Shown: piece by piece, positions 5,489-61,497 of the stretch
How positions within the stretch are numbered: position 1 is the stretch's first letter
Layout of the letters: each line of letters begins with the position of its first letter
NCBI GenBank assembly: GCA_963662465.1
Contig: OY759599.1
Location: 1,696,001-1,760,000 of the forward strand
DNA from: Desulfatiglandales bacterium
Lineage (GTDB): Bacteria > Desulfobacterota > DSM-4660 > Desulfatiglandales > Desulfatiglandaceae
DNA length: 64,000 bases
Reading direction: 5' to 3'
Notes under the pieces: generated by a model
Databases searched by the model: none
The model's input: only the letters and a program-made list of their open reading frames with translations
Told to the model about the DNA's origin: nothing
Made by a program: the position numbers and the translations under genes

Positions 5489-5524
5489 CCCTCAGCATGT
5501 TGAGGTTCCACTAAATATTGAGGG
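5489..5524 (+). promoter_or_regulatory. 36-bp palindromic enhancer-like repeat (copy 1; -24/-12 box missing)
   Basis: CCCTCAGCATGTTGAGGTTCCACTAAATATTGAGGG, 25 bp after the activator stop; AT-rich box at ~5570; no sigma54 box at the expected position (~5623). Confidence 0.8.
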
Positions 5525-5610
5525 CTAACCCGCCATTTCAACCTTCTCTACGCTTCTCTCTTATTCCTCTAATCCGCTGTTATTACAGACATATTAGACA
5601 TTCCTGAGCT

Positions 5611-5650
5611 TGGGCGCTAACCAAAATGGAACCAGTTTTGCTACTCCAAA
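5611..5650. mobile_element. Possible isolated IS21-type end
   Basis: Starts with TG and carries the repeated motif AAA(T/C)GGAACCAG twice; lies where the promoter module breaks off. Confidence 0.35.
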
Positions 5651-5869
5651 CGGAACCAGATATTGCGCACTGGTCTTTTCCTTTTAGAAGGGTTTTCTTG
5701 TAAATTTGTTAGAGGTTGCATGAAAGAGTATATCAGATGGTATTTTAAAAATGCTGGTGAGACACGTAGCGTTCTGGTTGAAGAATCAGTGATGAGGATA
5801 CCATCAATATGGTGATGGCAGAGAAGAGGGGATTAGATTTTTCGGTTAAGGGCAATGCTTATTGAGGAA

Positions 5870-6079
5870 CTATTTGTCTATGTCATAGTCGTCCGGTAAA
5901 TTCAGGAGGCCTCCCTTCGCCAATTGATCCTCAATCAAATATCCAATTTCCCCGTTTTTTTTCAGCTGTAGAATCATCCATTTGGGGAGACGAATGGTGA
6001 GCAGTTCACGTCTCAAATGTTCCGGTTTCTTTCTTCGGCCGGCGCCTACCCGTTTTCCACCTCTCATTTCAAGCTCCAA
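5870..6079 (-). CDS. Small hypothetical protein with RGGKRxGAGR motif (probable DNA-binding protein)
   Basis: MRGGKRVGAGRRKKP..LLTIRLP resembles small ribbon-helix-helix-type proteins. Confidence 0.55.
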   Translation of the reverse strand: MELEMRGGKRVGAGRRKKPEHLRRELLTIRLPKWMILQLKKNGEIGYLIEDQLAKGGLLNLPDDYDIDK

Positions 6080-6165
6080 GACAAGGTAATTTCTGATATT
6101 CGTGTAACGAGATTCAAACAGACCGGTGATATTCAGACCTCAAAACCGGCCCTTTGGCGAACATC

Positions 6166-6884
6166 TCATTTTCTGAGGGAAGGACCATCAATATGAATGT
6201 TGATGCAGCGATGGTTGAGACGATCCAGCAAGGCATCGACCATGTCCTTTGGTTCAAGCAGCGAATACCATTGTTCAGGTTGAAGATTGGTCGTAATAAT
6301 TGTGGACCGACCGGCTTCATAGCGATCTTTCATGAGTTTAAAAAAGGCGTTCATCTGCTCTTTTTTGAGGGTCAGGTATCCCAGTTCATCGAGCAGAAGC
6401 AGGTCATATCTGCAAAGGGCATTGAGGAGTTTCGGGGTGGACCGATCTGCCAAAGACGCATAGAGCTGATCCAGCAAATCCTGAACATTATAAAAACGCC
6501 CCCGGTACCCGGCAATAATGGCTTGACGAAGGATCCCCACGGCCAATCCCGTTTTGCCGACGCCGGTTTTTCCATGGAACACGATGTTTTCTCTTCGGCT
6601 GATAAAGTCAAGGCCGGACAACGTCATGATCCGGCTCTTCTGTATTCCCGGCTGAAGATCAAACGGAAAGGAGTTGAGGGTCCATTCCCATGGAAGCTTT
6701 GCAATCTGGACCCGATAGATCATGCTGCGCTCCTGCCGGAAACGTAATTCCTCAGCCAGGAGATTGTAGATGACCTCGTGAATGGAAAAACCGTTCTTTT
6801 CAGCCGAAGCCAACTGTTCTTCGAGAGCCTTCAGCATGCCTTTAAACTTCAAATCAATGAGTAACTGTTCAATTTTTTTTTCAT
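6166..6884 (-). pseudogene. istB: IS21-family helper ATPase IstB, start interrupted by another IS; probable IS21 end at ~6103
   Basis: GKTGVGKT Walker A, LLLLDELGY Walker B, STIITTN, ALLDRLNH..GPSLR; foreign IS end CAGAGTTC begins at 6885; TGT plus repeated ACCGG motifs at 6103-6150. Confidence 0.88.
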
Positions 6885-7546
6885 CAGAGTTCGGGAAGAA
6901 TCCCCCTGTATTGGCGTAACTATCTGAAATTATTAGACGTGAACTTCTCAAGTGAACGTGTGCTTTTCAAAATCAGATATTTATAAACAACTGAAATATT
7001 TAATGAAAATTTCTGAAGTTTTCGCTTGCAAAATAAAACATTTTTTGCAACTATCTATCCCATGGAAATCAGCACCAAAAGCGAAAATTTCGGAAATTTT
7101 TTTACTCTCTGCTCTCCCGATGACAGAAATCGGAAGATCAAGTATGTTTTTATTGATCGCAGGCCTGTTATCCATTTCGATATCGATAGTGCCGCCGAGC
7201 GAAAAATTGCCGTAGTTCAGCTTGTTGAACGTGGCATCTGCAACATAAAGACCGCCGGCGAATTGTGCGGATTCCATCGTAACACAGCCGGTAAGATTAT
7301 CCAAACCAAGAGGATCCTTGGGCTAGAGGCCATGCTTTTAGATGACCGCGGTTTGAAGGAGCCTTACAAATACATTGGCCAAGTATGTTCCCATATTGAA
7401 AAACTTCTTTTGGAGCATCCTGAATGGAAAGATCAGGATATCGCTGAACAGGCCGGCAAGAATCTCGACATGGAAATTTCCCGCAGCGCTGTCGCCAGGA
7501 TTCGCGTTGGGGAAGAAAAGAAACCCTCGTTGCCAACCAACTTATC
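6885..7546 (+). mobile_element. Left end and 5' part (ATG 7062) of unclassified transposase, divergent copy
   Basis: End CAGAGTTCGGGAAGAAT resembles those at 13653 and 20650; AVVQLVERG..AGELCGFHRNT..ISRSAVARIR is homologous to ORFs at 12347-13477 and 20827. Confidence 0.75.
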
Positions 7547-7848
7547 GTTCGCGTTTTAAATTTGCACTTCGATTAATTTCGAAATCTGGTAGCGGGTACC
7601 TCTCTTGGCAGGGGGAAAAGCTATTTCCGGAAAGCCTACCAGGAGTCTTTTTGAGCAACATGCATCCATGGGTTAGTAAAGCCTGAAAAATAACACACGT
7701 CGAATATTGGAACAACACAATAGGGCAGAAAATGGAATGGATTGTGCGTAAAACACCATCGTTCCATATCTCCAACAATGATATGAATTGTCGTAAAATC
7801 TGTATTTCAATTGTGACAACCTATAAGGGCTATGACGATAACATTCTA

Positions 7849-8160
7849 CTATTGCATAACTTCTAAATTATCGTATATAGAAGCGCTAAGTCCAAAGTGT
7901 TTTAGAATTTCACGTTGCAATTGAGAAAGCGGGGTTAGATGTCTTATCACACTATCTCCTGTTTCAATTATCGTTAATGTAATTTTGCTGAAAGCATTTA
8001 ATAGTTTCTCACACGTTGGATTGCTCGTAGCTTTCTTGGGATTTCCCAGGTGCAATCCAACAAGCTTTTCGTCACTTCTTGCTAATGAGCGGCGAACAAC
8101 AAATTCAACCAGAGTAATTACCCTGACTCCTATCATCAGAAGATGCGTTATTCCTTTAAC
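7849..8160 (-). pseudogene. IS1634-family transposase C-terminal fragment
   Basis: LVEFVVRRSL..GLHLGNPKKATSNPT..LLNAF..LTPLSQLQREIL..GL..IY resembles the IS1634 C-terminus. Confidence 0.7.
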
Positions 8161-8226
8161 TTGAAAGCATAGGAATTTCCATTTTTGATTTGGCATATCA
8201 AATAGTTGTTGCAGTGATGGCATTAA

Positions 8227-9720: not shown

Positions 9721-10425
9721 GTTCACCACACCGCGACCGTGACTTCTTTTCTTCAGTTCAGCCACATACTCATCCAGGATGGCATCCTCTCCCGTCAACA
9801 GCTGTTCTTCTTTTGAAGGGATTCGGGGATCTTTTTTTCTTCGAATGGGAACATGGTGACCGGGCAGGGTTGTTCGGGTGTTGCGTTTATCCAGTATGCG
9901 GTCATGTTCCGCCACTTTTGTGTTTTTGTCGTAAACGATGACCTTGAGCCAATGTTTCTGTACTTCCAGGGAGTTCCCAATCAGCGCTTCAGGGACTGAA
10001 TAGCGGTTGGTGTCCAAGTGCACATATCCCTGAACATCGGCTACCCTGTGTTCTGCCACATAGACTGGCGGCTGGTATGCCGGTAAATCAATGAGATATG
10101 GCTTTTCAATGACATAGGCCTCATCCGGCGTCATCCCTAAAGCCCGTTTAAACTTTTTATCGCTTGTATTCCGGCACCAGTCGATTGCCTGCCGGTTCAA
10201 ATCCTGCCAGCTAACAAATGTTCTACCGGGAAGAAAATTGTTTTCCACAAAATGAAAAGGCCTTTCCACACGGGCACTTCGATTGGCGTCTCCTACAGCA
10301 TGGGCCTCAAACCGGGTTCCATACATATCGCCGAAGTATTTCATTTCAGGCGCAATCAATGCATCAGGCCCGGTGCCGCCGGCCACAATAACATTGGTGT
10401 TGTCAACCATGCACCGGGAACACAC
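9721..10425 (-). pseudogene. istA: IS21-family transposase IstA internal fragment
   Basis: CMVDN..RSARVERPFHFVENNFLPGRTF..NRYSVP; cut by ISAs1 on one side and IS91 on the other. Confidence 0.85.
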
Positions 10426-12346
10426 CAGGGTGAATTTATTCTTCCGAATTATCCAAATAAAATATAAAAGTTGCGCTACATTATGGACAGAAACCCTCGG
10501 ATGGTGTATATACTGTGACAGGCACCAAACCAATTCGGGGTTTAAATTCTTGAACGTTAAGCAAGTCCGCATTCAAATAGTCCGCCCGCTTGAAGAACAA
10601 CGCTTTCAGCATCTGATGCAGTCGCATCATTATTTGGGCGCTCTTCCCAAGATCAGCGAAACCCTCTGGTATACAGCTAGACTAAATAGTGAGTGGATTG
10701 CGCTTGTCAGTTTTTCTGCTCCCGCTTTGAAATGTACACCAAGGGACAGCTGGATCGGATGGAATTTTCGCCATCAATACGATCGACTGAAACTGGTAAC
10801 CAATAACAGTCGTTTTCTAATTTTGCCCGAATGGCATATTCCGAATCTCGCATCCCGTATCCTTTCATTATGTCGGAAGCGAATGCAGGCTGATTGGCAG
10901 GAGCGTTTCGGGCATCCGGTTGTACTCCTGGAAACCTTTGTGGACCCAAAGCAATTCCACGGAACCGTATATCGAGCGTCTAATTGGATATATGTTGGTA
11001 AAACAAAGGGTTTTCATCGAACTCGCCAAGGCTACAGCGATAAAGCGGATTCACCGAAAATGGTTTTTCTTAAACCATTGGTTTCCAATGTTCAAGCACT
11101 GTTATCCCGACCTGTTCTCAAAAAACCATATCTTACAGGAGGTTACAAAATCATGCTCAGTGCGGAACATATGAAATCTCTACCCGACTTTTTTGCTCAA
11201 ATTCCCGACCCGCGTCGATCCCAGGGACGACGTCACAGGCTCTCCACTGTTCTGGCCATTGCCACCGCCGCAACACTGTGCGGAATGCGCGGTTATCTGG
11301 CGATATCCGATTGGGTAAATGGTCTTGGACAAAAAGCCCTTGAGCGTTTCCGTTGCCGATATGAAAATAAGCGCTATGTAGCTCCCAGTCAGTCTACTAT
11401 CCGTGATGTTCTGGTTCGCGTTGACCCCACAGAACTCGACAAAGCTCTCCAGCGTTGGAATCTGCTTTACGGTGAACAGGACGAAAGCTTGGCCATCGAT
11501 GGAAAAACCATGTGTAATGCCATCGATGAACAAGGTTATCAGACTCACATCATGAGTGCTGTCGGCCATCAAACTAAGACCTGTTACACCCAAAAAAAGT
11601 CGGTTCTCTCCCTGTAGAAGGCAAAGACGAACTCAAGCGAACCAATGAAATCAAAACGGCTGCCCCTTTACTGGACGCGATCGATATCGAAGGCAAAGTC
11701 ATTTCAGCTGACGCACTGCTAACCCAAAGGACTTTTGCTAAATATTTGGTCGAGCAACGCAACGCCCATTACCATTTCATCGCCAAAAACAACCAGCCCA
11801 CATTACTTCAAGACATTTCCCTGTATTTTGAGGGCTGCAACGATCCTGATTTCATACAACACGATGCTCCCGATCATGGTCGCATCGAAGTGCGCAAAAT
11901 ATGGACGACTACCGAACTTAACCTATACCTGGATTTCCCGTATGTCGGCCAGGCTTTTATGATCCAGAGAGAAGTTACAAACAAGAAAACCGGTAAATGC
12001 ACAGTTGAGGTTGCTTACGGCATAACGAGTCAATCACCTGATCAGGCGAATCCCGAACGTGTACTTTCTATCAATCGCGGTCACTGGAGCATTGAAAACG
12101 AGTGCCATTACATCATCGACTGGAACTACGACGAAGATCGAAGCCGAATAAGAACCGGCAATGGTCCTGAAAACATGACCAGGCTGCGTAGATTCGCGGT
12201 GGGCGTCATTAAGGCGAAAGGCGTTCGCAGTGTAGCCCAGAAAATGCGCCAGCTCACGCAGAACGTAAGGGGTGTCTTCGACTATCTCAAGATGACCAAA
12301 AATTCAGTGCCCCAAGCGTGATACCTGTTAGAACAAATTTACCGTG
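10426..12346 (+). mobile_element. ISAs1-family IS, 1921 bp, copy 1 (no TSD)
   Basis: Imperfect TIRs CAGGGTGAATTTATTCT / CACGGTAAATTTGTTCT; near-identical to 55989-57909; flanks come from two different transposase genes. Confidence 0.93.
10550..12321 (+). CDS. DUF4338-like domain fused to ISAs1 transposase; -1 frameshift at A_AAA_AAG (11592-11599)
   Basis: HHYLG..NNSRFLILP..NLASRIL..LLETFVD..GTVYRASNW (DUF4338-like) in frame with IPDPRR..AIDGKT; -1 frame gives TNEI..DALLTQ..KNNQPTL..HGRIEVR..RGHWSIEN. Confidence 0.85.
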
Positions 12347-13653
12347 CCCGTCAAGGTCGCTGACAACATAAATCTCGTTTCCTTTCATGACAATTCGTCT
12401 CACGGTATGGTAGCCTTTGGATAGAACTTTCAGTCCATAATAGGGAAGGAAGTGCCCATCGATAAAAAACACCTCCGGGTTGATGAACCCCAACGATAGA
12501 AACAGGTTTGCGAAATAATCTATCAGGCTCTCTGAGGGCTTGAACTCGGCCATCTGTTTTAAACGCAACCGAATAGTGGTCTCATCGGGGGAACTGGTTC
12601 GTCCCAGCAAAAGCCCCATGTCCCTACTGTTGACCAGCTTATGGGATTCGATAGATGGCAACCCGATGTTCAACCCGAAAAGGACAGTTTCCATCACTTC
12701 ATAATTATCATACATATTATTGGAATAAGAAGGCAAATCAAAGGCATTTGGGAAGTTGATATGATCTAAAAACAGATGGTGAAGAAGCATGCCGGCAAAG
12801 ACATTGCGTTGTCCCTGTTGAAGATAATCCAGGAATACTTTATCTGTATCGGTTTGTGGCTTGGGTGTATCCTCATCAGCAAATTCATCTACCTTCTTTT
12901 TGAACTCAGAATCAGCCTCAAAGTTGAAAGAAAGCTGTCGCTCGTCGTGTTGCTTCAAATCAATACTATCCGCAATTTTAGCCAGTTGCTCCAAGTCATG
13001 CTTTGTAGGCTTTTCAGTTTCTGCATCTTGGTCCGCGGTTCTGATACGAGCTACAGCACTTCTCGAAATAGTCGTTTCAGTTTGCTTTTCCGCGGCATTT
13101 GCAATCTGCTGGTCAGTCCAGTCAGGATTCTCGCGGATAAGTTTTTTGATGGTTTTGCGAATGCTGCCAATATATTTCCAGGGAGCCTTGGGACCACGGT
13201 TGTCCTCAAATATGGCCTCAACACCTAAAAGTCTTTTGGTGCGAAGCAGTTTGCCAACCGTATTGCGGTGAAACCCACAGATTTTACCGGCAACCCGGTT
13301 TTTACAATAACCAAGCTCGACAAGTTGTACGGCAGCGAGTCTCCTATCATTTATCTTCCCAGGATCGAAACTGACGACAGGACGATACTCATGATAAACC
13401 GTAACAGTGATTTTTTCCTTCCAATCCCGCTCGGTCCATATGGATAGGTCGCTAATTTTTTCTGTTTTGACAATCATGGTCTGAAGATAATTTTTCAGTT
13501 TTCATTTGTCAATAAAAAAAAATTTTGCCCCACCTAATATTTTCAGCTAGTTACGCTGCACTAAAATCTGAAATGCACACGAAATTATGAGAAGCTCCAG
13601 TATAACGATTTCAAACAGTTAAGTTGCGTAAAGGTCATTTACCAGGAATTCTG
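12347..13653 (-). mobile_element. Left end and 5' part (ATG 13477) of unclassified transposase, truncated by ISAs1
   Basis: HTH-like N-terminus plus FFIDGHFLPYYG..KGYHTVRR motif; end CAGAATTCCTGGTAAATGACC; near-identical to 20650-21341. Confidence 0.8.
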
Positions 13654-25040: not shown

Positions 25041-25189
25041 CCCTCAGCATATTGCGGTTCCACCAAATATTGAGGGCAAATCAGCCATTCCATGCAGTGC
25101 CGCTACTCGCTCCTGTTGTCCTAAAGAACTGTTATTAATTCAGTAATCCAAAATATTGCCGATTCGCGGTTGTTGGCAGGATAATTGCA
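25041..25189 (+). promoter_or_regulatory. Palindrome + IHF-like box + sigma54 promoter (upstream of DUF3096-csbD-lmo0937-BON cluster)
   Basis: Palindrome 25041-25076; TTGGCAGGATAATTGCA with GG at 25175 (99 bp). Confidence 0.85.
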
Positions 25190-25300: not shown

Positions 25301-25438
25301 ATGCAAATCGATATCTCCCCACAACCGGTGATTGCGCTAATCGCGGGTATCGCGATTCTCGTTGCCCCGAAACTATTGAATTTTATTGTTGCCATTTATC
25401 TCATTGTATTTGGCATTTTAGGGCTGGTCCGAATGTAA
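25301..25438 (+). CDS. DUF3096-like small membrane protein (45 aa)
   Basis: MQIDISPQPVIALIAGIAILVAPKLLNFIVAIYLIVFGILGL; GGAGG RBS; not in ORF track. Confidence 0.8.
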   Translation: MQIDISPQPVIALIAGIAILVAPKLLNFIVAIYLIVFGILGLVRM

Positions 25439-25467
25439 TCAACCCGAAATCCAACAGGAGGAATATC

Positions 25468-25647
25468 ATGAAATCAAGCACAAAGGACAAAGCGGAAGGA
25501 AAGTTGCACCAGGCGAAGGGTAAGATCAAAGAGATCGCCGGGAAAGTCATCCTGAATCCTGACTTGGAAGCCGAAGGCAAAAAGGAAAACAAAACCGGCA
25601 AAGTTCAAGAAAAAATCGGTGAGATCAAGAAGGTCGGTGGTAAGTAA
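25468..25647 (+). CDS. csbD: CsbD-family general stress protein (59 aa)
   Basis: MKSSTKDKAEGKLHQAKGKIKEIAGK..DLEAEGK..GKVQEKIG; AGGAGG RBS. Confidence 0.88.
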   Translation: MKSSTKDKAEGKLHQAKGKIKEIAGKVILNPDLEAEGKKENKTGKVQEKIGEIKKVGGK

Positions 25648-25697
25648 ACAAAGGCTTCCATAAAAAGACTTTTGGAAGCGTTAGAGAGGCGGCTGAA

Positions 25698-25847
25698 ATG
25701 CTTTGGACCATATTTGTAATTCTTTTGATTCTGTGGGTGCTGGGTTTGTTGACAGGCTACACGATGGGTGGCGTCATCCATGTTCTGCTGGTCATTGCCA
25801 TCATCGTGGTGCTGATCCAGGTGATTCAAGGACGAAGACGAGGGTAA
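25698..25847 (+). CDS. lmo0937-family small membrane protein (49 aa)
   Basis: MLWTIFVILLILWVLGLLTGYTMGGVIHVLLVIAIIVVLIQVIQGRR. Confidence 0.85.
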   Translation: MLWTIFVILLILWVLGLLTGYTMGGVIHVLLVIAIIVVLIQVIQGRRRG

Positions 25848-25937
25848 CCAAGGTCAAATCCCTGTGAGGTATTCAGTATCCAGTGTGAATCGTCAAGAAG
25901 GCAAAAACAAAACGTTACAAAAAAAGGAGAACGTACC

Positions 25938-26738
25938 ATGAAAGCAATACATTCTGCAGTTCTGATGGCAGCCGCATTCGCTCTACTGGTGATAAGCGTG
26001 CCCGTGCATGGGTCCAACACGGATGACGGCATCGAATCATCGGCCAGGAAGACTTATGTTTTCAAGACCTACCTCAAGTACGACGACATTAAGATCCAGT
26101 CCAAAGACGGCGCCGTCATCTTGACGGGGACTGTCGCCGAAGAACCTAATATAATGTTGGCCCAGGTGACCGTGGTGGGCTTGCCAGGGGTCAAGAGTGT
26201 GGACAATCAGCTGAAACTGAAGGATGAAACAGGCGCTGGAAGCCCGGACGCGCTGGTCAGAGCAAGAGTGAAGCTCGATCTGTTGTCCCATCGCAACCTG
26301 CGTGGCAGTAAGACGGACGTTCAAGTGAAAGATGGGATCGTCACCTTGAGCGGCGAGGCCGCGAACCAGGCCCAAATCGATCTGACGACCGAATACATCA
26401 GGAACGTCGAGGGCGTCAAGGATGTTAAGAACGACATGACCGTGTCGGAGGCTGGAAAAACGATGGGCGAAAAGGCCGGGGACGTGGGTAACAAGATCGG
26501 CAACACGGCAGGTGATGTGGGGGAATGGATCGATGACGCGTCCATTACCGCTTTGGTCAAAGGGACGTTGCTGTATCATCGTTCGACCAGTGGCCTCAAC
26601 ACCAAAGTCGAGACGACCGAAGGCGTGGTCAAGTTGAGTGGCTCGGCCAGGAACGCATCCGAGAAGGAATTGGCTACCAAATTCGTGGAAGACGTTTATG
26701 GTGTGAAGAGTGTCAATAACCAGATGACCATCAAGTAA
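25938..26738 (+). CDS. Triple BON-domain (OsmY-like) periplasmic protein
   Basis: Signal peptide; three BON units (GVKSVDNQL, DGIVTLSG, IDDASITALVK..GVKSVNNQM). Confidence 0.92.
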   Translation: MKAIHSAVLMAAAFALLVISVPVHGSNTDDGIESSARKTYVFKTYLKYDDIKIQSKDGAVILTGTVAEEPNIMLAQVTVVGLPGVKSVDNQLKLKDETGAGSPDALVRARVKLDLLSHRNLRGSKTDVQVKDGIVTLSGEAANQAQIDLTTEYIRNVEGVKDVKNDMTVSEAGKTMGEKAGDVGNKIGNTAGDVGEWIDDASITALVKGTLLYHRSTSGLNTKVETTEGVVKLSGSARNASEKELATKFVEDVYGVKSVNNQMTIK

Positions 26739-26767
26739 TACGAGTCGTTTATATCATGGAGGTCGTT

Positions 26768-27058
26768 ATGAAAAACAAAAGAAAAGCGTACGAAGAAAAG
26801 TTAGATGCACAGGTGAATGAATGGAACGCGCAGATCACTTTGCTCAAGGCGAAGGCTGAGAATGCCAAGGCCGATGCGAAGATTGATTACTACAAAAGCA
26901 TTGAGGCATTGGAGCACAAACAAGGTGAAGCCAAGGCGAAGCTGCAAGAATTAAAAACCGCCGGCGATGAGGCATGGGAAGACGTCAAAGCAGGTTTGGA
27001 AAAAGCCTGGGCTGAAGTCAAGACCGCCTATCAGGATGCGACCTCGAAGTTCAAATAA
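26768..27058 (+). CDS. Small coiled-coil stress-type protein (96 aa)
   Basis: RKAYEEKLDAQ..EW..AWEDVKAG.EKAW; GGAGG RBS; paralogue at 37175. Confidence 0.85.
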   Translation: MKNKRKAYEEKLDAQVNEWNAQITLLKAKAENAKADAKIDYYKSIEALEHKQGEAKAKLQELKTAGDEAWEDVKAGLEKAWAEVKTAYQDATSKFK

Positions 27059-27407
27059 AGCAGGGGTTCTGTATGTATGGGCTTTTCGGTAGGCTGTTTT
27101 CTGTTTCAAGCGAAGGGACCTGAGTTGGCCACATCGGTGTTCACAAAAGGCGCCTACCTAGAGAAAAGGCTAAGCCTATAAAGCAAACGGGTTTATTTTA
27201 GGAGTGGGGTCATGCTGCGGTTACGCTTTTTTGGAGGTGAGGTGGGGGCATTGCCATCGCACAGAAACTCGATACAGCTAAGCAGCCTGATATGCCTCTT
27301 AGCGCGATTGAAAGCGGGTGTATCGATTTTGTTCTTTCACCGGAGGATATCGCTCGAGAAATTGTCCGAATTTCGCACGCTCAAAGAATGGAAATGGAAT
27401 CTGGCCC

Positions 27408-28736
27408 ATGAATAAACTCAAGCAAATTTGGAGCCATCTGCGGTCAAGCTTTTGGTTTGTGCCTTCGCTGATTGTTGCCGTCAGCATCGCCCTCGCCGTG
27501 GCTTTGATTGGAGCGGATTTCACAGAGAGCGAACAATGGCTGGCCCGCTGGCCGCGCCTGTTTGGCGTCGGCGCGGATGGCGCACGCGGGACTTTGTCCA
27601 CGATTGCCGGATCGATGATGACCGTGGTGGGGGTCACGTTTTCGATGGTTTTGATGACACTGGCGCTGGCCTCAAGCCAATACACCTCGCGCATCCTTCG
27701 GAACTTCATGCGTGACCGTGTCACGCAGGTTGTGCTCGGAATCTTCGCTGGTATTTTCACCTATTGCCTGATCGTGTTGCGGACCGTCCGCGGCGGCATT
27801 GATGGCGTATTTGTTCCGAGCATGGCAGTGTCTTTCAGCGTCGTGCTGGCGATGGGCGGCATCGGCGTCCTCATCTTTTTCATCCATCACATCGCTGCTT
27901 CGATCCAGGCCTCGAACATTATTGCCTCGGTAGCCGACGAAACCATGGCGGTTGTTGACCGGCTTTTTCCAGAGAAGCTTGGAAACGGACCGGTTGACAG
28001 CGATGAGGACCCGGCAGTACTCGCTCTGCCGGCGCAACACTGGCAGGCCGTCCCGGCCAGGAGGAATGGTTACATCCAAGGCATGGATAATGCGGCGCTC
28101 CTGCGTTTGGCTCGGGAGTACAACACCATTGTGCGGATGGAACGGAGCATCGGCGATTTTGTGGTCTATGACGCCACGCTGGCCTCGCTCGCTTTGGAGC
28201 TCCCGCCGGGACAAGAGCTCATCACCGCTCTGCGGGAGTCCTACCGCATAGACCGGTATCGCACGGTGGAACAAGATCTCGCTTTCGGCGTCAGACAGAT
28301 CGTGGACATAGCGTTACGGGCGCTATCTCCCGGCATCAACGACACCACGACGGCCGTGATGTGTGTGGATTATCTGACGGCGATTCTGGCACGGCTGGCC
28401 TCCCGGTCAATCCCTTCATTGCACCGCTATGAGAACCGGGAATTGAGGGTGATCGCCATCGGACCCACCTTTGCGAGCCTTGTGGCCGAAGCGTTCGATC
28501 AAATTCGCGGCAGTGCCGACGGCAATATCGCCATCATGTTACGGATGCTTGGCGCGATCCAAACCATCGCCGGTCTGACGGCCGGCCCGAGCCGACGGCG
28601 GGCGCTCCATGAACAAGTGCAATGGATCGCCGAATTGGCCGAACGCACCATCGAGTCCCCGCACGACCGGGCACGACTTGAGAGCCGGCTGGCGCGTGTG
28701 CGCGAAGCACTCGAAACAGAGCCGTTAGGCAGATAG
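27408..28736 (+). CDS. DUF2254-family membrane protein
   Basis: SFWFVP, LSTIAGSM, LASSQYTSRILRNF, DIALRALSPGINDTTTA. Confidence 0.88.
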   Translation: MNKLKQIWSHLRSSFWFVPSLIVAVSIALAVALIGADFTESEQWLARWPRLFGVGADGARGTLSTIAGSMMTVVGVTFSMVLMTLALASSQYTSRILRNFMRDRVTQVVLGIFAGIFTYCLIVLRTVRGGIDGVFVPSMAVSFSVVLAMGGIGVLIFFIHHIAASIQASNIIASVADETMAVVDRLFPEKLGNGPVDSDEDPAVLALPAQHWQAVPARRNGYIQGMDNAALLRLAREYNTIVRMERSIGDFVVYDATLASLALELPPGQELITALRESYRIDRYRTVEQDLAFGVRQIVDIALRALSPGINDTTTAVMCVDYLTAILARLASRSIPSLHRYENRELRVIAIGPTFASLVAEAFDQIRGSADGNIAIMLRMLGAIQTIAGLTAGPSRRRALHEQVQWIAELAERTIESPHDRARLESRLARVREALETEPLGR

Positions 28737-32740: not shown

Positions 32741-32999
32741 GCAAATGTCCTGCCAACAAGTGGAAGAAAGTGGAAGGCTGGATTCACCCATTAATAACGA
32801 AGGATTAGATTAACAGGCTGGAGCAGCGGGAAAATTTGAAATGATCGCTTTCCCTCAATATATGGAGATTCCACCAAATATTGAGGGATATACAATGCTT
32901 TCAACCTTCTTTATGGTTCTCTCCTGTTTATATAACCAACCGTTATTAAAAAATGATGAAAACCTCTTGTTTTTCCCCGGTTGTTGGCAGGCCCTTTGC
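32741..32999. promoter_or_regulatory. Bidirectional module: one palindrome with divergent sigma54 promoters
   Basis: Palindrome 32852-32887; minus-strand TTGGCAGGACATTTGC (32741-32756, 98 bp); plus-strand TTGGCAGGCCCTTTGC (GG 32986, 99 bp). Confidence 0.85.
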
Positions 33000-36936: not shown

Positions 36937-37085
36937 CCCTCAATATATGGAAGTTCCACCAAATATTGAGGGCTAACCAATGATTTAAACCTTCTTAATG
37001 GTTCTCTCCTGTTCATATAACCAACCGTTATTAAAGGATAATGAAAACCTCTTGCTTTTTTCCAATTGTTGGCAAGCCCTTTGCA
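36937..37085 (+). promoter_or_regulatory. Palindrome + IHF-like box + sigma54 promoter (upstream of coiled-coil gene and DUF748)
   Basis: Palindrome 36937-36972; TTGGCAAGCCCTTTGCA with GG at 37071 (99 bp). Confidence 0.85.
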
Positions 37086-41136: not shown

Positions 41137-41223
41137 GTCGTTGAGTCCATGTGAGAGCAAGGATCCATAAGCTCGGGATACTCCGGCCGGGGACCAAGGT
41201 GTCGGATTAAACTGCCTTTTTTG

Positions 41224-43888: not shown

Positions 43889-44035
43889 CCCTCGATATAT
43901 GGAGGTTCCACCAAATATTGAGGGTAAACGATCCTTCCAAACTTTTCCGCTGTTCCATCCTTTTAACCTAATTTATTGTTATTAATGGATAAATCCATCC
44001 TTCCGCTTTCTTCCACTGTTGGCAGGAGATTTGCA
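43889..44035 (+). promoter_or_regulatory. Palindrome + IHF-like box + sigma54 promoter (upstream of c-di-GMP operon)
   Basis: Palindrome 43889-43924; TTGGCAGGAGATTTGCA with GG at 44021 (97 bp). Confidence 0.85.
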
Positions 44036-45655: not shown

Positions 45656-45699
45656 GTTTCTAATCCGTTCTGAAATCAAGTTCAATGGGGGGGTAGACG

Positions 45700-49997: not shown

Positions 49998-50034
49998 AAT
50001 GCATATTCAGGAGAAGGGGTCAAGGGAATCTCAA

Positions 50035-52425: not shown

Positions 52426-52575
52426 GCAAAGGGCCTGCCAACAATTGGAGAAAAAGCAAAATCCTGCAATAATCCATTAATAACGATTTGTTATATGAAT
52501 AGGAGAGGCGCGTGGAGGAGTTTAAAATGATAGCTTAGCCCTCAATATTTGGTGGAAACCTCAATATACTGAGGG
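52426..52575 (-). promoter_or_regulatory. Palindrome + IHF-like box + sigma54 promoter (minus strand)
   Basis: Palindrome 52539-52575; minus-strand TTGGCAGGCCCTTTGC 52426-52441 (100 bp); activator 3' scrap at ~52580-52700. Confidence 0.85.
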
Positions 52576-52774: not shown

Positions 52775-52922
52775 CCCTCGATATATGGAGGTTCCACCAA
52801 ATATTGAGGGTAAACGATCATTTCAAACTTTTCCGTTTTTCCATCATTTCAATCTAACGCTTTGTTATTAATGGATGAATCCATCCTCCCACTTTCTTCC
52901 ACTTGTTGGCATGAGATTTGCA
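52775..52922 (+). promoter_or_regulatory. Palindrome + IHF-like box + sigma54 promoter (upstream of gpmA)
   Basis: Palindrome 52775-52810; TTGGCATGAGATTTGCA with GG at 52908 (98 bp). Confidence 0.85.
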
Positions 52923-53730: not shown

Positions 53731-53811
53731 AAAGATCAGCCAACAAGGCGGATTCAGGCGACGACAAATTAGTGGTCGCTATCATCTGCCAACAGGAAGG
53801 AGGTGATTAAT

Positions 53812-53952: not shown

Positions 53953-53981
53953 GCCGGATTTAAAAGCGAGAATTGAAGGCT

Positions 53982-54089
53982 TGCGAACAATCGCATGAGC
54001 GCAGACCAGAAAGGCCGGGGCAAATATTATTGTGGATCTTCATGTCCTGTGCCCCGGCCTTTTTTGGCTGCTTATGCGGAGCGTTATGT
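53982..54089 (+). other. Solitary integron attC-like site
   Basis: GCGAAC-AATC-GCATGAGCGCAG..AAAGGCCGGGGCA/TGCCCCGGCCTTT..CTGCTTATGCGGAGC-GTTATGT. Confidence 0.7.
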
Positions 54090-54121
54090 ATGAAGCAACA
54101 AAACGAGAAGAGGCGTTACGA

Positions 54122-55144
54122 ATGAACAACGATACACTCAGATCTGTAGCAAAAGCAATCGTCGCGAAACAGAAGGGCGTGCTGGCGGCGGACGAAAGCA
54201 ATCCCACGATCAAGAAGCGCTTCGCTTCGATCAAGGTCGAGTCCACCGAAGAAAATCGCCGGCGGTACCGCGAAATCCTTTTTACAGGCGAAGGGATTGA
54301 ACGTTATATCGGAGGGGTCATTCTCTTCGACGAAACGCTGCGCCAAGGCACTCGGGACGGTACTCCCTTTGCGGAGCTGCTATCGAGCCGGGGGATCGTA
54401 CCGGGGATCAAGGTGGACAAAGGCGCTAAAGCGCTGGCATTGTACCCTGGCGACAAAATCACCGAGGGGCTTGACGGCCTGCGCGAGCGGCTCGTCGAGT
54501 ACAAACAGATGGGGGCTAAGTTCGCTAAGTGGCGGGCGGTTATTGAGATCAACGAGCGCGATGTTCCTTCGGCGTTCGGTATTCGTGCGAATGCCCACGT
54601 ATTAGCGCGTTATGCCGCGCTCTGCCAGGAATTGGACATTGTGCCGATCGTGGAACCGGAAGTACTCATGGATGGCGCCCACAACATGGAACGGTGTGAA
54701 GTTGTCACATCCAGGGTTCTCGAAGCAGTGTTCACCGAACTTGATGCCCACGGTGTGCTTTTCGAGGGTATGTTGCTAAAGCCGAATATGGTTATCGCCG
54801 GTATGAAATGCGCGCGTCAGGAAAACGTGCAGCGGGTTGCAGAGGCCACGGTCCGTTGCCTGAACCGCTATGTGCCGGCGGCTGTTCCTGGAATCGTATT
54901 CCTGTCCGGTGGGCAGAGCGCAGAAGATGCCACTGACCACCTGAACGCCATAAACATGATGGGCCCGCATCCGTGGCAAGTCAGTTTTTCTTATGGGCGT
55001 GCGTTGCAGGCGCCGGTGCTTGCGACCTGGAAAGGTCAGGAAGGCAATCTGGCTGCCGCTCAGAAGACGCTTTTGAAACGTTGCCGGTTAAACGGTCTCG
55101 CTCGCGACGGAAAGTATGCCCGGGCAATGGAAACGGCTGGATAA
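54122..55144 (+). CDS. Class I (eukaryote-type) fructose-bisphosphate aldolase
   Basis: GVLAADES, GIKVDKG, FAKWRAV, VPIVEPEV, LLKPNMV, FLSGGQS, FSYGRALQ. Confidence 0.95.
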   Translation: MNNDTLRSVAKAIVAKQKGVLAADESNPTIKKRFASIKVESTEENRRRYREILFTGEGIERYIGGVILFDETLRQGTRDGTPFAELLSSRGIVPGIKVDKGAKALALYPGDKITEGLDGLRERLVEYKQMGAKFAKWRAVIEINERDVPSAFGIRANAHVLARYAALCQELDIVPIVEPEVLMDGAHNMERCEVVTSRVLEAVFTELDAHGVLFEGMLLKPNMVIAGMKCARQENVQRVAEATVRCLNRYVPAAVPGIVFLSGGQSAEDATDHLNAINMMGPHPWQVSFSYGRALQAPVLATWKGQEGNLAAAQKTLLKRCRLNGLARDGKYARAMETAG

Positions 55145-55988: not shown

Positions 55989-57909
55989 CACGGTAAATTT
56001 GTTCTAACAGGTATCACGCTTGGGGCACTGAATTTTTGGTCATCTTGAGATAGTCGAAGACACCCCTTACGTTCTGCGTGAGCTGGCGCATTTTCTGGGC
56101 TACACTGCGAACGCCTTTCGCCTTAATGACGCCCACCGCGAATCTACGCAGCCTGGTCATGTTTTCAGGACCATTGCCGGTTCTTATTCGGCTTCGATCT
56201 TCGTCGTAGTTCCAGTCGATGATGTAATGGCACTCGTTTTCAATGCTCCAGTGACCGCGATTGATAGAAAGTACACGTTCGGGATTCGCCTGATCAGGTG
56301 ATTGACTCGTTATGCCGTAAGCAACCTCAACTGTGCATTTACCGGTTTTCTTGTTTGTAACTTCTCTCTGGATCATAAAAGCCTGGCCGACATACGGGAA
56401 ATCCAGGTATAGGTTAAGTTCGGTAGTCGTCCATATTTTGCGCACTTCGATGCGACCATGATCGGGAGCATCGTGTTGTATGAAATCAGGATCGTTGCAG
56501 CCCTCAAAATACAGGGAAATGTCTTGAAGTAATGTGGGCTGGTTGTTTTTGGCGATGAAATGGTAATGGGCGTTGCGTTGCTCGACCAAATATTTAGCAA
56601 AAGTCCTTTGGGTTAGCAGTGCGTCAGCTGAAATGACTTTGCCTTCGATATCGATCGCGTCCAGTAAAGGGGCAGCCGTTTTGATTTCATTGGTTCGCTT
56701 GAGTTCGTCTTTGCCTTCTACAGGGAGAGAACCGACTTTTTTTGGGTGTAACAGGTCTTAGTTTGATGGCCGACAGCACTCATGATGTGAGTCTGATAAC
56801 CTTGTTCATCGATGGCATTACACATGGTTTTTCCATCGATGGCCAAGCTTTCGTCCTGTTCACCGTAAAGCAGATTCCAACGCTGGAGAGCTTTGTCGAG
56901 TTCTGTGGGGTCAACGCGAACCAGAACATCACGGATAGTAGACTGACTGGGAGCTACATAGCGCTTATTTTCATATCGGCAACGGAAACGCTCAAGGGCT
57001 TTTTGTCCAAGACCATTTACCCAATCGGATATCGCCAGATAACCGCGCATTCCGCACAGTGTTGCGGCGGTGGCAATGGCCAGAACAGTGGAGAGCCTGT
57101 GACGTCGTCCCTGGGATCGACGCGGGTCGGGAATTTGAGCAAAAAAGTCGGGTAGAGATTTCATATGTTCCGCACTGAGCATGATTTTGTAACCTCCTGT
57201 AAGATATGGTTTTTTGAGAACAGGTCGGGATAACAGTGCTTGAACATTGGAAACCAATGGTTTAAGAAAAACCATTTTCGGTGAATCCGCTTTATCGCTG
57301 TAGCCTTGGCGAGTTCGATGAAAACCCTTTGTTTTACCAACATATATCCAATTGGACGCTCGATATACGGTTCCGTGGAATTGCTTTGGGTCCACAAAGG
57401 TTTCCAGGAGTACAACCGGATGCCCGAAACGCTCCTGCCAATCAGCCTGCATTCGCTTCCGACATAATGAAAGGATACGGGATGCGAGATTCGGAATATG
57501 CCATTCGGGCAAAATTAGAAAACGACTGTTATTGGTTACCAGTTTCAGTCGATCGTATTGATGGCGAAAATTCCATCCGATCCAGCTGTCCCTTGGTGTA
57601 CATTTCAAAGCGGGAGCAGAAAAACTGACAAGCGCAATCCACTCACTATTTAGTCTAGCTGTATACCAGAGGGTTTCGCTGATCTTGGGAAGAGCGCCCA
57701 AATAATGATGCGACTGCATCAGATGCTGAAAGCGTTGTTCTTCAAGCGGGCGGACTATTTGAATGCGGACTTGCTTAACGTTCAAGAATTTAAACCCCGA
57801 ATTGGTTTGGTGCCTGTCACAGTATATACACCATCCGAGGGTTTCTGTCCATAATGTAGCGCAACTTTTATATTTTATTTGGATAATTCGGAAGAATAAA
57901 TTCACCCTG
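55989..57909 (-). mobile_element. ISAs1-family IS, 1921 bp, copy 2, 10-bp TSD
   Basis: GTAGTTCGAC at 55979-55988 and 57910-57919; same TIRs as copy 1. Confidence 0.95.
56014..57785 (-). CDS. DUF4338-like/ISAs1 transposase with -1 frameshift
   Basis: Same protein sequence and slippery site as 10550-12321. Confidence 0.85.
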
Positions 57910-58082
57910 GTAGTTCGACTGAAAGTCTTGACCATTCCCCCCGAATATGGCAATCTGATCCAATTCAGGAAAACATAACCCTCATTTAAAATTCATTCGG
58001 TGCTTATTGAAATTTAAGTTGATTTAAATTCCAATCGCGAAATGGGATTTTGTCTGGTGGGTGGTAGGCATTGGGGATTGGG

Positions 58083-59825
58083 ATGGATGTGAAGGAATTA
58101 AAGTTGAAAGAAAATCAGAGAGAGTCCGAACTCAGGCGAAGCGCTGAGGAAAAACTGAAAGAAGTGACCTCAGGCATGGGAGATCTCTCCGAAGTCCCGC
58201 CCGAAAGCATGGCGAACCTCATACACGAGCTTCAGGTTCACCAGATTGAGTTGAAAATACAAAACGAAGAGCTCCGTCGCATTCAGGGGGAATTGGAAAA
58301 GGGGCGGGATCAATATTCTCATTTGTATGATTTCTCACCGGTCGGCTATGTTACGTTGACTGAAAAGGGAATCATCCATGAGGCCAATCTCACCCTTGCT
58401 TCCATGTTTGGTGTAGAGCGGAGCGTCTTGGTTGGAAAGCCGTTCGCCCTTTTCGTTTTTAGAGACGACCAGGATGCTTTCTATAAATTTCGGCATCGTC
58501 TACTGGAAACGGAGAAATCCCAGTCCTGCGAACTGCGTTTTTTGAAAAAGGACGAACATGCGTTTTTTGCCGGTTTAGACTGTATGGTTGTAAAAAACAC
58601 GGACGACGATTTCAGGTTTATCAGAGGGGCAGTGAGCGATATCAACGAACGGCACCTTATCGCCGAAGCTTTGCAGGAAGCCCACAACGGACTGGAACAG
58701 CGAGTGGAAGAACGGACAGCCGAACTCCGGACGGCGAATGCGGAATTGGCGCGGGAAGTCGAAGAACATCGACAGTCAGCGGAATCCCTCTGCAAAGCCC
58801 TTTCTGAAATCAAGAAAATGAAAGACCACCTTGAAGCCGAAAACATTTACTTTCGACGAGAAATGAAAATAAAACATCGATTCAATGAGATTCTCGGGCA
58901 AAGCGATAGCCTCAGGCATGTTCTTTTTCGGGCGGAGCAGGTTGCTCCTCAGAACACGACGGTTCTTATCCTCGGCGAGACCGGTACGGGAAAGGAGTTG
59001 ATCGCCGCCGCCATCCACAACATGAGTCCACGCAAGGATCGGGCGCTCATCACGGTCAACTGTGCCGCCCTGCCGGCCAATTTAATAGAAAGTGAATTGT
59101 TCGGCCGGGAGAAGGGGGCCTTTACCGGGGCCGATACCCGGCAGATAGGCCGGTTCGAGGTTGCCCAGGAGTCCACCCTTTGCCTGGACGAGATCGGAGA
59201 ACTGCCGCTGGAGTTGCAGGCCAAACTGCTGCGGGTGATCCAGCATAACGAGTTTGAGCGCCTGGGCTCCTCCCGTACCATCAAAGTCGATGTGAGGGTC
59301 ATCGCAACAACCAATCGAAACCTTGAGGAAGAGATTCAAAAGGGCCGATTCCGGCAGGACCTTTACTATCGGCTCAATGTTTTCCCGATCACGGTACCGC
59401 CATTACGGCAACGGAAAGAAGACATCCCTTTATTGGTCCATGCCTTCATAGAGCGCTATGCCAGAAAAATGGGGAAAAAGATCACATCGATGCAAAAGGG
59501 GACGATGAAGGTTCTGCAGGATTACCCGTGGCCCGGGAACATCCGGGAGCTGGAAAGTATCATTGAACGAGCCGTGATTTTGTGCCCCGGGCCGGTTTTG
59601 CATTTGGCGGACAAACTGACGATTTCATCCCTTCCCCTGTCATCCGGCATGAAAACGCTGGAAGAGACCGAGCGAAACCAAATCCTCAACACCCTCTTGG
59701 AAACCCGGTATCGCATTGAGGGAAAGAACGGGGCCGCGGAGGTCCTGGGCCTCCACCCGAGTACCTTGAGAGCACGGATGCATAAGCTCGGAATACTCCG
59801 GCCGGGGACCAAGGTCTCGGATTAA
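58083..59825 (+). CDS. PAS + sigma54-interacting AAA+ activator with Fis-type HTH (intact)
   Basis: [48 protein letters not shown]. Confidence 0.95.
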
Positions 59826-59849: not shown

Positions 59850-59999
59850 CCCTCAGTATATTGCGGTTCCACCAAATATTGAGGGCTAAGCAATCATTTC
59901 AAACTCCTCTACGCTCCTATCCTATTAATATAAATAATTGTTATTAATGGATTATTGCAGCGTTTTGCCTTTTCTCCAGTTGTTGGCAGGCCCTTTGCA
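59850..59999 (+). promoter_or_regulatory. Palindrome + IHF-like box + sigma54 promoter directly behind the intact activator
   Basis: Palindrome 59850-59885; TTGGCAGGCCCTTTGCA with GG at 59985 (100 bp). Confidence 0.85.
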
Positions 60000-60124
60000 G
60001 ATACAATTTGCATGATCCTGGTCGACATATGAATGAAACGGTTGTTTATTCCTCTATCCTTGCTGGGACCATCGTGGCGATTCCGGCTTTGCCGAAGCTG
60101 GGAAAAAAATCTCTTCATGAAAGG

Positions 60125-60275
60125 CGTATGGACAAAGAGATCCACAAATTAAAGGAAAGACCTGAGTTCTTCCAGTGGAAATGCCTGGGAGCAATTAAAA
60201 ACAGGTATCGATGCGGCTCTGGAGGATTTGGGTAACGCCAACAAAAAGGCAGCGGCCGAGTTCAGTAAATCCTGA
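60125..60275 (+). pseudogene. Coiled-coil family gene remnant
   Basis: SSGNAWEQLKTGIDAALEDLGNA..AAAEFSKS* resembles the C-terminus of the coiled-coil family. Confidence 0.5.
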
Positions 60276-60406
60276 GAACAGTGATTTTACCTTATTCGGT
60301 CAGGTCAAAGAGGTATTGGGGAAGTAGTGAAAGCTGGGTATCATGTACCAGCGGATGAATCCGAAGCCGCACAGATGTTCAAAAAAAAGAAAGGGAGGGA
60401 ATTACC

Positions 60407-60496
60407 ATGAGTACTACAACACTTATTCTTGTCATTGTCGTTTTGTTACTATTATTCGGCGGGGGTGGCGGTTACTATTGGCGTAGACGGCGGTAG
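60407..60496 (+). CDS. 29-aa membrane peptide MSTTTLILVIVVLLLLFGGGGGYYWRRRR
   Basis: GGGAGG RBS; hydrophobic helix, Gly run, aromatic and Arg tail. Confidence 0.7.
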   Translation: MSTTTLILVIVVLLLLFGGGGGYYWRRRR

Positions 60497-60606
60497 GTAT
60501 GTCGGGTGCCGCTGATTGGAGATTGATATCTGATCTGGATGTCTTTTTTGTTCGAGTGGGAAAACCTCCTTTCGAGTGGCATCCTCTGCATAATTCTTAC
60601 AAAAGG

Positions 60607-60735
60607 ATATGGAGGTTCCACCAAATATTGAGGGAAGACCAGACATTCCATACCCTGCCGCTACACGCTCCTGTTAACCTAACGAACTGTTATTAATTCA
60701 GTAATCCAAAATTCTGTGGGGGATTGCGCTTGTTG
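60607..60735 (+). promoter_or_regulatory. Degenerate module (left arm lost; broken at the -24 box)
   Basis: ATATGGAGGTTCCACCAAATATTGAGGG; spacer similar to 25077-25172; TTGTTG then diverges. Confidence 0.7.
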
Positions 60736-60765
60736 AGCTGTTTAAAAAAATCAAAGGCGGTTGTC

Positions 60766-61302
60766 ATGAAAAGATATCTATTTTCCAGAATGGTTGTAAC
60801 AGGGGTTGTAGTCGTGTTGATAAGCTTTGGCGTCAACGCATTTGCAGAAACGGGCGGAGGCTCCGGAAAAATTGTCGTCATTCGGGATTCCGATGGCGAC
60901 GGGGTGTCTGACAACCTGGACAAACGTCCGGGAACCCCGAATGGTGCAAACGTAAACCAGTTTGGTTACTGGGTCCTCGAAAATGTGCTTTTTGATTTTA
61001 AGAAATATGACATCAAACCACAATTCTACGGATACTTAGACCAAGTCGCAGTAGTTTTTGAGAAGAATCCTTCCATCAAAGTGCAAATCCAAGGAAATAC
61101 GGATAACATCGGGACTGCGGCCAACAACATAAAAATCTCTTTAAAAAGAGCGGAAGCTGTTATGAACTATCTCATCAAAAAGGGCGTTGCCAAAAACAGG
61201 CTTTCGGCCAAGGGGTATGGTTTCACAAGACCGATAGCCACCAACGCAACAGCAGAAGGCAGGGCGCTCAACCGGAGGGTCGAACTGAGACCCATTCCCT
61301 GA
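60766..61302 (+). CDS. OmpA-family protein
   Basis: DSDGDGV.D.LD..PGTP; VLFDF, IQGNTDNIG, LSLKRA-like, GRALNRRVE. Confidence 0.9.
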   Translation: MKRYLFSRMVVTGVVVVLISFGVNAFAETGGGSGKIVVIRDSDGDGVSDNLDKRPGTPNGANVNQFGYWVLENVLFDFKKYDIKPQFYGYLDQVAVVFEKNPSIKVQIQGNTDNIGTAANNIKISLKRAEAVMNYLIKKGVAKNRLSAKGYGFTRPIATNATAEGRALNRRVELRPIP

Positions 61303-61360
61303 AGATTCATCAAACTCCGTGCAGGTACGGAGGATACCATGCCGCCCTATGCAGGCAAAA

Positions 61361-61497
61361 TTTGAGCGCCTGGGCTCCTCCCGAGTACCTTGAGAGCAAG
61401 GATGCATAAGCTCGGGATCGTCCGGCCGGAGGCCAAGGCGCCGGATTAACCTGTCCCGCTATCCTCAAAAACGCCCTCAACATATGGAAGGGTTTCA
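61361..61497 (+). pseudogene. Activator scraps plus left half of the palindrome
   Basis: TTTGAGCGCCTGGGCTCCTCCCG joined to AGTACCTTGAGAGCAAGGATGCATAAGCT..GATTAA..CCCTCAACATATGGAAG. Confidence 0.7.

Follow-up and report, generated by a model that had tools for sequence, protein, structure and literature searches.

The 64,000-nt stretch analysed here (the window; contig OY759599.1 of assembly GCA_963662465.1, positions 1,696,001-1,760,000, from a Desulfatiglandales bacterium) contains repeated copies of a palindrome of about 36 bp, several of them at a fixed distance from a sigma54 -24/-12 box, and an intact gene (58083-59825) for a sigma54 activator, situated directly before one of these copies. 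An earlier note on this DNA, made from the letters alone, had proposed that the activator binds the palindrome and thereby controls a general stress regulon. Coordinates are positions in the window; the source genome (G000, 8.16 Mb) was searched whole for copies of the palindrome, and other genomes and fetched loci are designated by G-numbers (e.g., G010) and L-numbers (e.g., L164), respectively. The features of the window on which the analysis is based are listed below; IHF stands for integration host factor, HTH for helix-turn-helix and IS for insertion sequence.

3722..5284, plus strand: activator paralogue, 92% identical, with a TGA before the HTH, whose codons persist at 5285-5464
5489..5524, plus strand: tandem-dyad enhancer, promoter cut off
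5608..5760, no strand: terminal part of an IS21-type element present in many copies (istB nearby), standing in place of the sigma54 box at the 5489 copy
25041..25076, plus strand: enhancer, with an internal activator fragment upstream at 24943-25018
25174..25188, plus strand: sigma54 box, with an IHF-like box at 25121-25136
25301..28736, plus strand: predicted targets, namely DUF3096, CsbD, lmo0937/DUF5670, a triple-BON protein, an sll1863-family protein and DUF2254
32741..32755, minus strand: sigma54 box before a truncated sll1863-family gene (32508-32690)
32852..32887, no strand: enhancer with a complete spacer and sigma54 box on each side
32985..32999, plus strand: sigma54 box before mere remnants of ABM and sll1863 gene starts
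36937..36972, plus strand: enhancer, with an eroded activator tail upstream (about 36808-36912)
37070..37084, plus strand: sigma54 box before an sll1863-like gene (37175-37465, judged by eye), then DUF748 split over two frames (to 40986)
41152..41212, plus strand: activator tail without an enhancer behind it
43889..43924, plus strand: enhancer
44020..44034, plus strand: sigma54 box before PAS-GGDEF, hybrid kinase, PAS-GAF and REC-HD genes (44255-51081)
52426..52440, minus strand: sigma54 box before a repetitive open reading frame (ORF) of 145 residues (51919-52356)
52539..52575, minus strand: enhancer, 37 bp, with an activator tail upstream (52575-52702, minus strand)
52775..52810, plus strand: enhancer
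52907..52921, plus strand: sigma54 box before gpmA and a class I aldolase gene (52984-55144)
58083..59825, plus strand: intact activator gene, coding for coiled coil and PAS, AAA+ with GAFTGA, and Fis-type HTH
59850..59885, plus strand: tandem-dyad enhancer, 25 bases past the activator stop codon, with 28 bases separating the last sense codon and the first dyad
59930..59945, plus strand: IHF-like A/T box
59984..59998, plus strand: sigma54 -24/-12 box, predicted start near 60010, followed by a six-codon remnant of an ABM gene start
60599..60634, plus strand: decayed copy that retains the right dyad and the IHF-like box and has lost the sigma54 box, with an OmpA-domain gene downstream
61369..61490, plus strand: activator tail with the left dyad alone, joined to a triple-BON gene leader (gene at 61600-62466), with CsbD beyond (62792-62971)

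A block of two tandem dyads and a sigma54 box

All ten palindrome sites described earlier, eight full and two partial, are present in the sequence. Seven full copies (5489, 25041, 32852, 36937, 43889, 52775 and 59850) have one to five mismatches to the consensus first given for them, the copy at 52539 is full, of 37 bp and on the minus strand, and the partial copies hold an intact right dyad (60599/60607) or only the left one (61474). The 36-mer had been taken for two tandem sites, and its best reading is indeed as two tandem 16-bp dyads with a repeat period of 18 bases, each consisting of 5-base arms around an ATATAT-like core. Across 79 sites, collected with looser patterns or via the activator, the arm positions are near-invariant and variation concentrates at the inner bases, the centre and the outermost base.

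The eight sigma54 boxes (TGGCA-N6-TTGC) also lie exactly where they had been reported, with distances from the palindrome to the first G of 99, 99, 98, 99, 97, 100, 98 and 100 bases for 25041+, 32852+, 32852-, 36937+, 43889+, 52539-, 52775+ and 59850+, respectively. The dyads of the window end 95-98 bases before the box, GG-N10-GC spacing occurs in the eight boxes, and the 32852 palindrome serves both directions. By comparison, the strict sigma54 pattern occurs 432 times in 16.3 Mb (both strands), a chance expectation of about 1.6e-4 per 6-base start window. The TAA-like box noticed between palindrome and promoter is found as TAA-N4/5-YGTTATT in all eight window spacers. A TGGAAC promoter-like box after 5489 was discarded, as it belongs to the IS end.

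A scan of the genome with a weight matrix, which had been suggested as a check, gave scores far above background for copies not used in training: with a matrix from seven window copies, five copies outside the window reached 46-58 bits against a chance background of at most 18.2 bits, and the gapped 52539 copy 19 bits. The whole genome contains 14 copies, 13 of them full and one near-full, in addition to the half copy at 61474. One 90-kb island (1.681-1.768 Mb) has 13 of the 14, and the remaining one is at 3.09 Mb (L003:9069); the latter is double-sided, precedes an acetyltransferase-like gene and has an identical arrangement in G004. Twelve copies, two of them double-sided, serve 14 intact sigma54 boxes, and three palindromes of the genome have a spacer on both sides. 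At 60599 no sigma54 box is left, and near 5608 the promoter of the 5489 copy is truncated by one end of a sequence that has more than 25 near-identical copies in the genome, next to istB. This IS21-type element is recently expanded, with near-identical ends in more than 25 genomic places, and its copy in the window (5608 onward) is itself broken by IS91-like and other transposase genes.

Distribution and association with the activator gene

An exact-pattern search of a genome collection retrieved at least 124 loci with at least 141 distinct sites, and all 124 named records carrying the block are metagenome-assembled genomes. Among the matches listed, the record titles are Desulfatiglandales, Syntrophales, Smithellaceae, Syntrophaceae, Desulfobacterales, Geobacteraceae, Desulfuromonadaceae and unclassified deltaproteobacteria, with three further records under other or vague titles; the closest named activator (90% identity) is from a record titled Desulfatiglandales, and the sigma54 box starts 94-99 bases from the palindrome in 125 of the 141 distinct sites, with few exceptions on the same side. 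The hosts are uncultured anaerobic bacteria of sediment and peat. A 2.6-kb contig titled as an archaeon (L017) carries a full block and is likely mis-binned. A plasmid search gave no match, and viral contigs yielded 30 loci, the best of 52% identity, with no close orthologue.

The palindrome usually lies 26-35 bases after the activator stop codon. Behind an activator HTH are 31 of 98 sites, 16 on long activator matches and 15 on remnants, and a palindrome with up to seven mismatches occurs in 23 of 28 activator-anchored loci. Among 79 metagenome loci found by protein alone, it is present only in two orthologues (82-83%), 27-28 bases after the gene. In a set of 60 relatives, the five genomes with an HTH of at least 70% identity are the same five that have full blocks. 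Co-occurrence with activator orthologues, a check suggested in the earlier note, was examined in 400 genomes of the phylum (palindrome with at most three mismatches, HTH with at least 65% identity): 29 have the palindrome, 26 the HTH, 368 neither, and 23 of the 29 palindrome genomes also hold the HTH. The three genomes with the HTH only have a diverged dyad pair behind the activator gene; among the six with the palindrome only, the G125 orthologue is cut by a contig end and G406 keeps just a 19-residue tail. G367 was searched only with the 70-residue HTH. A loose palindrome pattern (one mismatch, 401 genomes) gave 121 matches, its reversed control being equally frequent, and was abandoned as too noisy in favour of a stricter pattern, the reversed control of which was found in 0 of 401 genomes.

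The activator and a sister module with a different dyad

The 58083-59825 ORF codes for a PAS domain, a sigma54-interaction domain (GAFTGA), a lid and a Fis-type HTH, and lacks receiver and GAF domains. Among named families it scores best with FhlA (NF011958), at 394 bits vs. a cut-off of 830, and a PDB search returned only weak NtrC-family HTH matches (E 0.3-0.4). The activator and its paralogue at 3722 had both been described as standing before palindrome copies; the 58083 gene is intact, whereas the paralogue stops before the HTH and has a destroyed promoter. In short-read contigs, which may stem from the sample of the assembly itself, the sequence across this stop is unchanged, and the stop is therefore not a long-read error. 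Eroded remains of the activator gene stand before four copies in the window (25041, 36937, 52539 and 61474) and before two beyond it, and G010, of the same genus, has three full-length activators and several remnants in a comparable island. The source genome encodes one rpoN, eight HU/IHF-family genes and dozens of sigma54 activators.

A sister module lies 26 kb upstream of the window (L327:9665-13692, 1.67 Mb in G000). It consists of an activator 56% identical to that of 58083, with helix NRSTLRAR, followed by a different tandem dyad (TGGTCA-type arms, ATAT core kept, period 17) and, at a distance of 100 bases, by a sigma54-like box; an ABM gene and ftsH come next. From 30 loci fetched via the sister ABM gene, all 19 with a visible HTH have an (N/D)RSTLRAR helix together with a TGGTCA-type dyad pair, and in 18 of the 19 the sigma54 box is situated 96-102 bases from the dyad. 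In the sister clade the dyad changes along with the recognition helix of the adjacent activator, which is the strongest indirect pointer to the activator as the binder. Single further activator-dyad pairs were found in L299, L301 and L184. A second pair of sister dyads, with its own sigma54-like box, lies inside the island right after an intact ABM gene (L002:8984-9016), and thus the two activators may share targets. The sister module is widespread in the class.

These comparisons suggest that the 58083 activator likely binds the tandem dyads. Taken together with the co-occurrence, the placement 26-35 bases behind the gene and the conservation of the boxes described below, they favour the enhancer and sigma54 reading and the activator chosen in the earlier note, and we consider it quite probable that this protein drives these promoters. 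Several observations weigh against this assignment. Since the block is physically linked to the activator gene, joint inheritance would by itself produce co-occurrence, and the counts are not an independent statistical test, because the genomes are kin and the parts linked. No intact orthologue was found in G419 (nine sites), G375, G327 or G406, the first three of which are fragmented assemblies, and G052 has a diverged site without an HTH match. The sister clade represents one evolutionary contrast, not 19. A distant activator (L164, 49% identical, with the same helix core) lacks the palindrome, and a blind scan for tandem dyads behind distant activators stayed mostly at the level of shuffled controls, with L299, L141, L184 and L178 standing out and dyads discerned by eye in L143, L144 and L301.

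In the mechanism that we propose, the block would act as two tandem 16-bp dyads about 97 bases upstream of the sigma54 box, with one activator dimer per dyad; the DNA would be looped by IHF or by an intrinsic A/T bend, and the AAA+ domains would open the sigma54 complex, with transcription predicted to start 26 bases after the TGG, which would place starts near 25200, 37096, 44046, 52933 and 60010.

Target genes and the proposed stress response

The commonest gene behind 133 distinct promoters codes for an ABM-domain protein (39 promoters) and was missing from the targets listed in the earlier note. It usually starts 27-29 bases after the TGG, at the predicted transcription start, and would be leaderless because the two starts coincide. 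OsmY/BON, YtxH and lmo0937 are RpoS or SigB genes in other bacteria. Of the 133 promoters, 59 have a stress-marker gene within the next three ORFs, namely BON (20), CsbD (15), LTXXQ (9), DUF3096 (9), lmo0937 (7), sll1863 (7), YtxH (5), DUF3309 (4) and others of the kind. The csbD gene is targeted directly by EcfG (PMC7083833). Promoters of the window face genes for DUF3096, CsbD, lmo0937, triple-BON, sll1863-family and DUF748 proteins, a PAS-GGDEF/kinase/HD operon, and gpmA with the aldolase. Both CsbD genes and all BON genes of the genome are within the island, and a search for RpoS (TIGR02394) and SigB (TIGR02980) gave nothing over the cut-off in the genome, ECF (extracytoplasmic function) sigma factors not having been searched. 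Under this scheme, small stress and envelope genes would be switched on together by one protein.

The general-stress regulon proposed earlier thus agrees with the marker genes and with the lack of RpoS or SigB matches over the cut-off; as judged from gene content, the chances that the response is truly general are about even. On the opposite side, 52 of the 133 promoters have no stress marker and no ABM gene downstream, and several promoters of the window face gene wrecks, so that part of the island is decaying. Four metatranscriptome contig sets from relatives cover DUF3096, CsbD, lmo0937, BON and sll1863 genes, and two also cover the palindrome; such contigs cannot show starts or exclude DNA, and they were not used as evidence.

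It is a serious possibility, although short of an even one, that the enhancer and the activator are real and the regulon answers one specific cue, e.g., redox, oxygen, osmotic change or entry into a resting state, the stress genes being mostly cargo of the island. The ancestral target, an ABM-domain gene sometimes followed by FtsH, would agree with this, as would the presence of the palindrome in only 29 of 400 genomes, the stress markers behind only 59 of 133 promoters, and the sensory N-termini of the orthologues, which range over proteins of 457-1014 residues with one to several PAS or GAF domains. Against a specific cue, the same marker families recur behind the block in distant families, and the genome has all its CsbD and BON genes in the island and no RpoS or SigB over the cut-off.

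Conservation and copying of the block

Conservation was measured over 20 activator-anchored loci, all selected because a box is present. In pairwise comparisons the dyad arms show an identity of 0.94 and the sigma54 core one of 0.98; the value for the spacers is 0.63-0.65, vs. 0.70 at four-fold synonymous sites of the HTH region. Spacers conserved as strongly as the boxes, which the earlier note had named as the mark of plain duplication without selection, are therefore not what is seen, because arms and core are held and the spacers drift at the synonymous rate. All 14 spacers of the genome are homologous (51-90% identical, mean 64%), and the block was therefore copied whole. Homology ends at variable points on either side, and the copies look like block duplications confined to the island rather than independently evolved sites. 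Fixed ends and genome-wide dispersal, as in mobile or REP-like (repetitive extragenic palindromic) repeats, were not observed, the ends being variable and 13 of 14 copies lying in one island, target-site duplications not having been searched.

The bend that IHF had been predicted to impose between enhancer and promoter has a possible counterpart in the A/T box, but the conservation of this box is only neutral. The IHF consensus is matched at 7-8 of 9 positions in the 14 genome spacers, 58 of 108 spacers from outside the genome score at least 8 vs. about 16 in shuffles, and the TAA and TTA positions of the IHF-like block stand out in the alignment. Its overall identity at the activator-anchored loci, 0.69, is no higher than that of neutral sites. 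An IHF site in the spacer is possible.

IS elements and broken genes abound in the island, and an ABM-like gene start is retained at 86 of 133 promoters, even where the gene is gone. We infer that the regulon arose by repeated duplication or import of an activator-enhancer-promoter-ABM unit, with the spare genes deleted and the promoter block kept. The ancestral unit would have been activator, enhancer, promoter and leaderless ABM gene; whole units would have been duplicated or gathered into the island, the spare activator and ABM copies lost, and each retained enhancer-promoter would have ended up upstream of new genes, with the surviving activator acting on it in trans.

The extra copies might instead be neutral debris of duplication, with the one behind the intact activator as the sole working copy. 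The homology of the spacers over their length fits this, as do the many copies with eroded activator tails and ABM heads, several of them truncated, in an island full of IS elements and broken genes. We consider it unlikely, however, since copies distant from the intact activator keep their dyads, the 95-98 spacer length and the two sigma54 elements even though up to half of the spacer sequence differs, and the block stays where the activator and ABM flanks vanish. It is even less likely that the sigma54 promoter is real and the dyads are bound by another sigma54 activator or by a repressor: the genome has dozens of sigma54 activators and no orthologue was found in a few genomes with sites, but the dyad sequence tracks the helix of the adjacent activator in the sister clade and the motif is restricted in nearly all cases to genomes with this HTH. 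We give very little credence to a recombination or integration site (two arms around a central dinucleotide) or a cargo-capture hairpin, because, although the palindrome folds better than shuffles (z -3.2 to -4.5), head-to-head double promoters exist and the cargo is varied, the homology ends vary on both sides, the centre varies, the hairpin has fixed mismatches across 79 sites with compensatory change at essentially one pair, no resolvase or integrase occurs among the 68 ORFs of the window, and a recombination site leaves unexplained both the fixed distance to the sigma54 box and the helix-linked sister motif.

Possible input and autoregulation of the activator

The sensory N-termini of activator orthologues vary as described above; in the source genome, the activator shares 32-52% identity over residues 1-200 with the N-termini of four hybrid kinases whose genes immediately follow CheB-CheR or CheR genes. 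A motif of this N-terminal module is retained in 110 of the 120 top homologues. A CheB-CheR gene is near only one of 154 cassette loci, and therefore such a partner would act in trans. The coiled-coil and PAS module shared with these kinases may be switched by a partner protein, which we regard as a lead and not as a result. The four gene pairs (L388-L391 in G000) each have a CheB-CheR or CheR gene followed by a hybrid kinase with activator-like coiled coil and PAS, in a genome with 18 CheR domains.

Upstream of both activator genes (57920-57960 and 3298-3335) there is a sigma70-like -35/-10 pair whose spacer resembles one dyad half-site. This half-site-like spacer occurs in the activator copies of the same genus and in none of the distant orthologues, and negative autoregulation of the activator genes is possible.

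Relation to known systems

Enhancers of sigma54 promoters lie about 80-150 bp upstream of the promoter (PMC4987338), and the module would work like a standard enhancer-IHF-sigma54 system (PMC4987338, PMC3897727). FhlA, the nearest named family, is likewise a one-component sigma54 activator and its enhancer is a 16-bp inverted repeat (PMC4987338). The enhancer sequence here is different, however, the targets are not hyc, hyp or fdhF, and the cut-off for the family is missed. FhlA has GAF domains at its N-terminus, whereas the activator has PAS plus coiled coil there. OrpR (DVU2106) from Desulfovibrio vulgaris shares with the activator the phylum, the PAS-type one-component architecture, the palindromic sites and the divergent promoters, and has IHF sites between the enhancer and the sigma54 box (PMC3897727). 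It differs in having GAFTDA and two target operons (PMC4641369, Table 1), as opposed to GAFTGA, as many as 14 promoters in one genome and stress genes as targets here; no orp genes are among the listed targets of the block.

In the D. vulgaris sigma54 regulome, sigma54 activators also run stress genes, and DVU3305 is labelled as general stress response (PMC4641369); the latter, however, belongs to a two-component system, has GAFSGA and controls two local operons. The dyad arms do not occur in the text of this study and nothing in its table matches the module, its logos being figures and outside this comparison (PMC4641369). With the RpoS, SigB and EcfG regulons the block has marker genes in common, but here the predicted agents are sigma54 and an enhancer-binding protein, and the promoters are spread as copied 150-base blocks. 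The motif and the regulon were not found in the literature searched, a scope that excludes RegPrecise, subscription journals and supplements. What appears new is the motif, its sister motif, a stress-gene regulon under sigma54 and its visible spread by module copying, the parts themselves being familiar.

Tentatively, we put forward a fourth design of general stress response, in which a one-component sigma54 activator would replace RpoS, SigB or EcfG in a range of uncultured Desulfobacterota; it would grow by module copying and gene shedding, and its input would be a swappable coiled-coil and PAS module wired to CheB-CheR fusion proteins. The general stress response of strict anaerobes, such as syntrophs and sulfate reducers of sediments, is poorly described, and the circuit proposed is precise enough (a single activator, a site of 34 bases and a promoter at a set distance) to be rebuilt in Escherichia coli with no need to grow the hosts. 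Stages of regulon building are preserved side by side, in the form of intact modules, remnants of activator and ABM genes (eroded tails and heads, respectively) and orphan promoters, and the two sister activator-dyad pairs would constitute a natural specificity switch and candidate orthogonal sigma54 parts.

Other features of the window and the island

Behind the 32852 promoter, the region 33452-35295 holds an inserted pair of genes for an AAA_21 ATPase and a DUF4276 protein that resembles a defence or toxin-antitoxin module, and behind the 59850 promoter a membrane peptide of 29 residues with a glycine run and a basic tail is encoded at 60407-60496. Broken ATP synthase gene remnants (beta/alpha pieces and gamma) occupy 28812-30903 and resemble a decayed N-ATPase operon. 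Two copies of a transposase-associated ORF, with a DruA/Mom-like domain fused to DDE_Tnp_1_assoc, are found at 10283-12321 and 56014-57953. The right part of the island (L002:3564-4728 and 9931-15735) contains a split gene similar to ribosome hibernation factors, a cardiolipin synthase gene and a glycosyltransferase/phosphorylase cluster.

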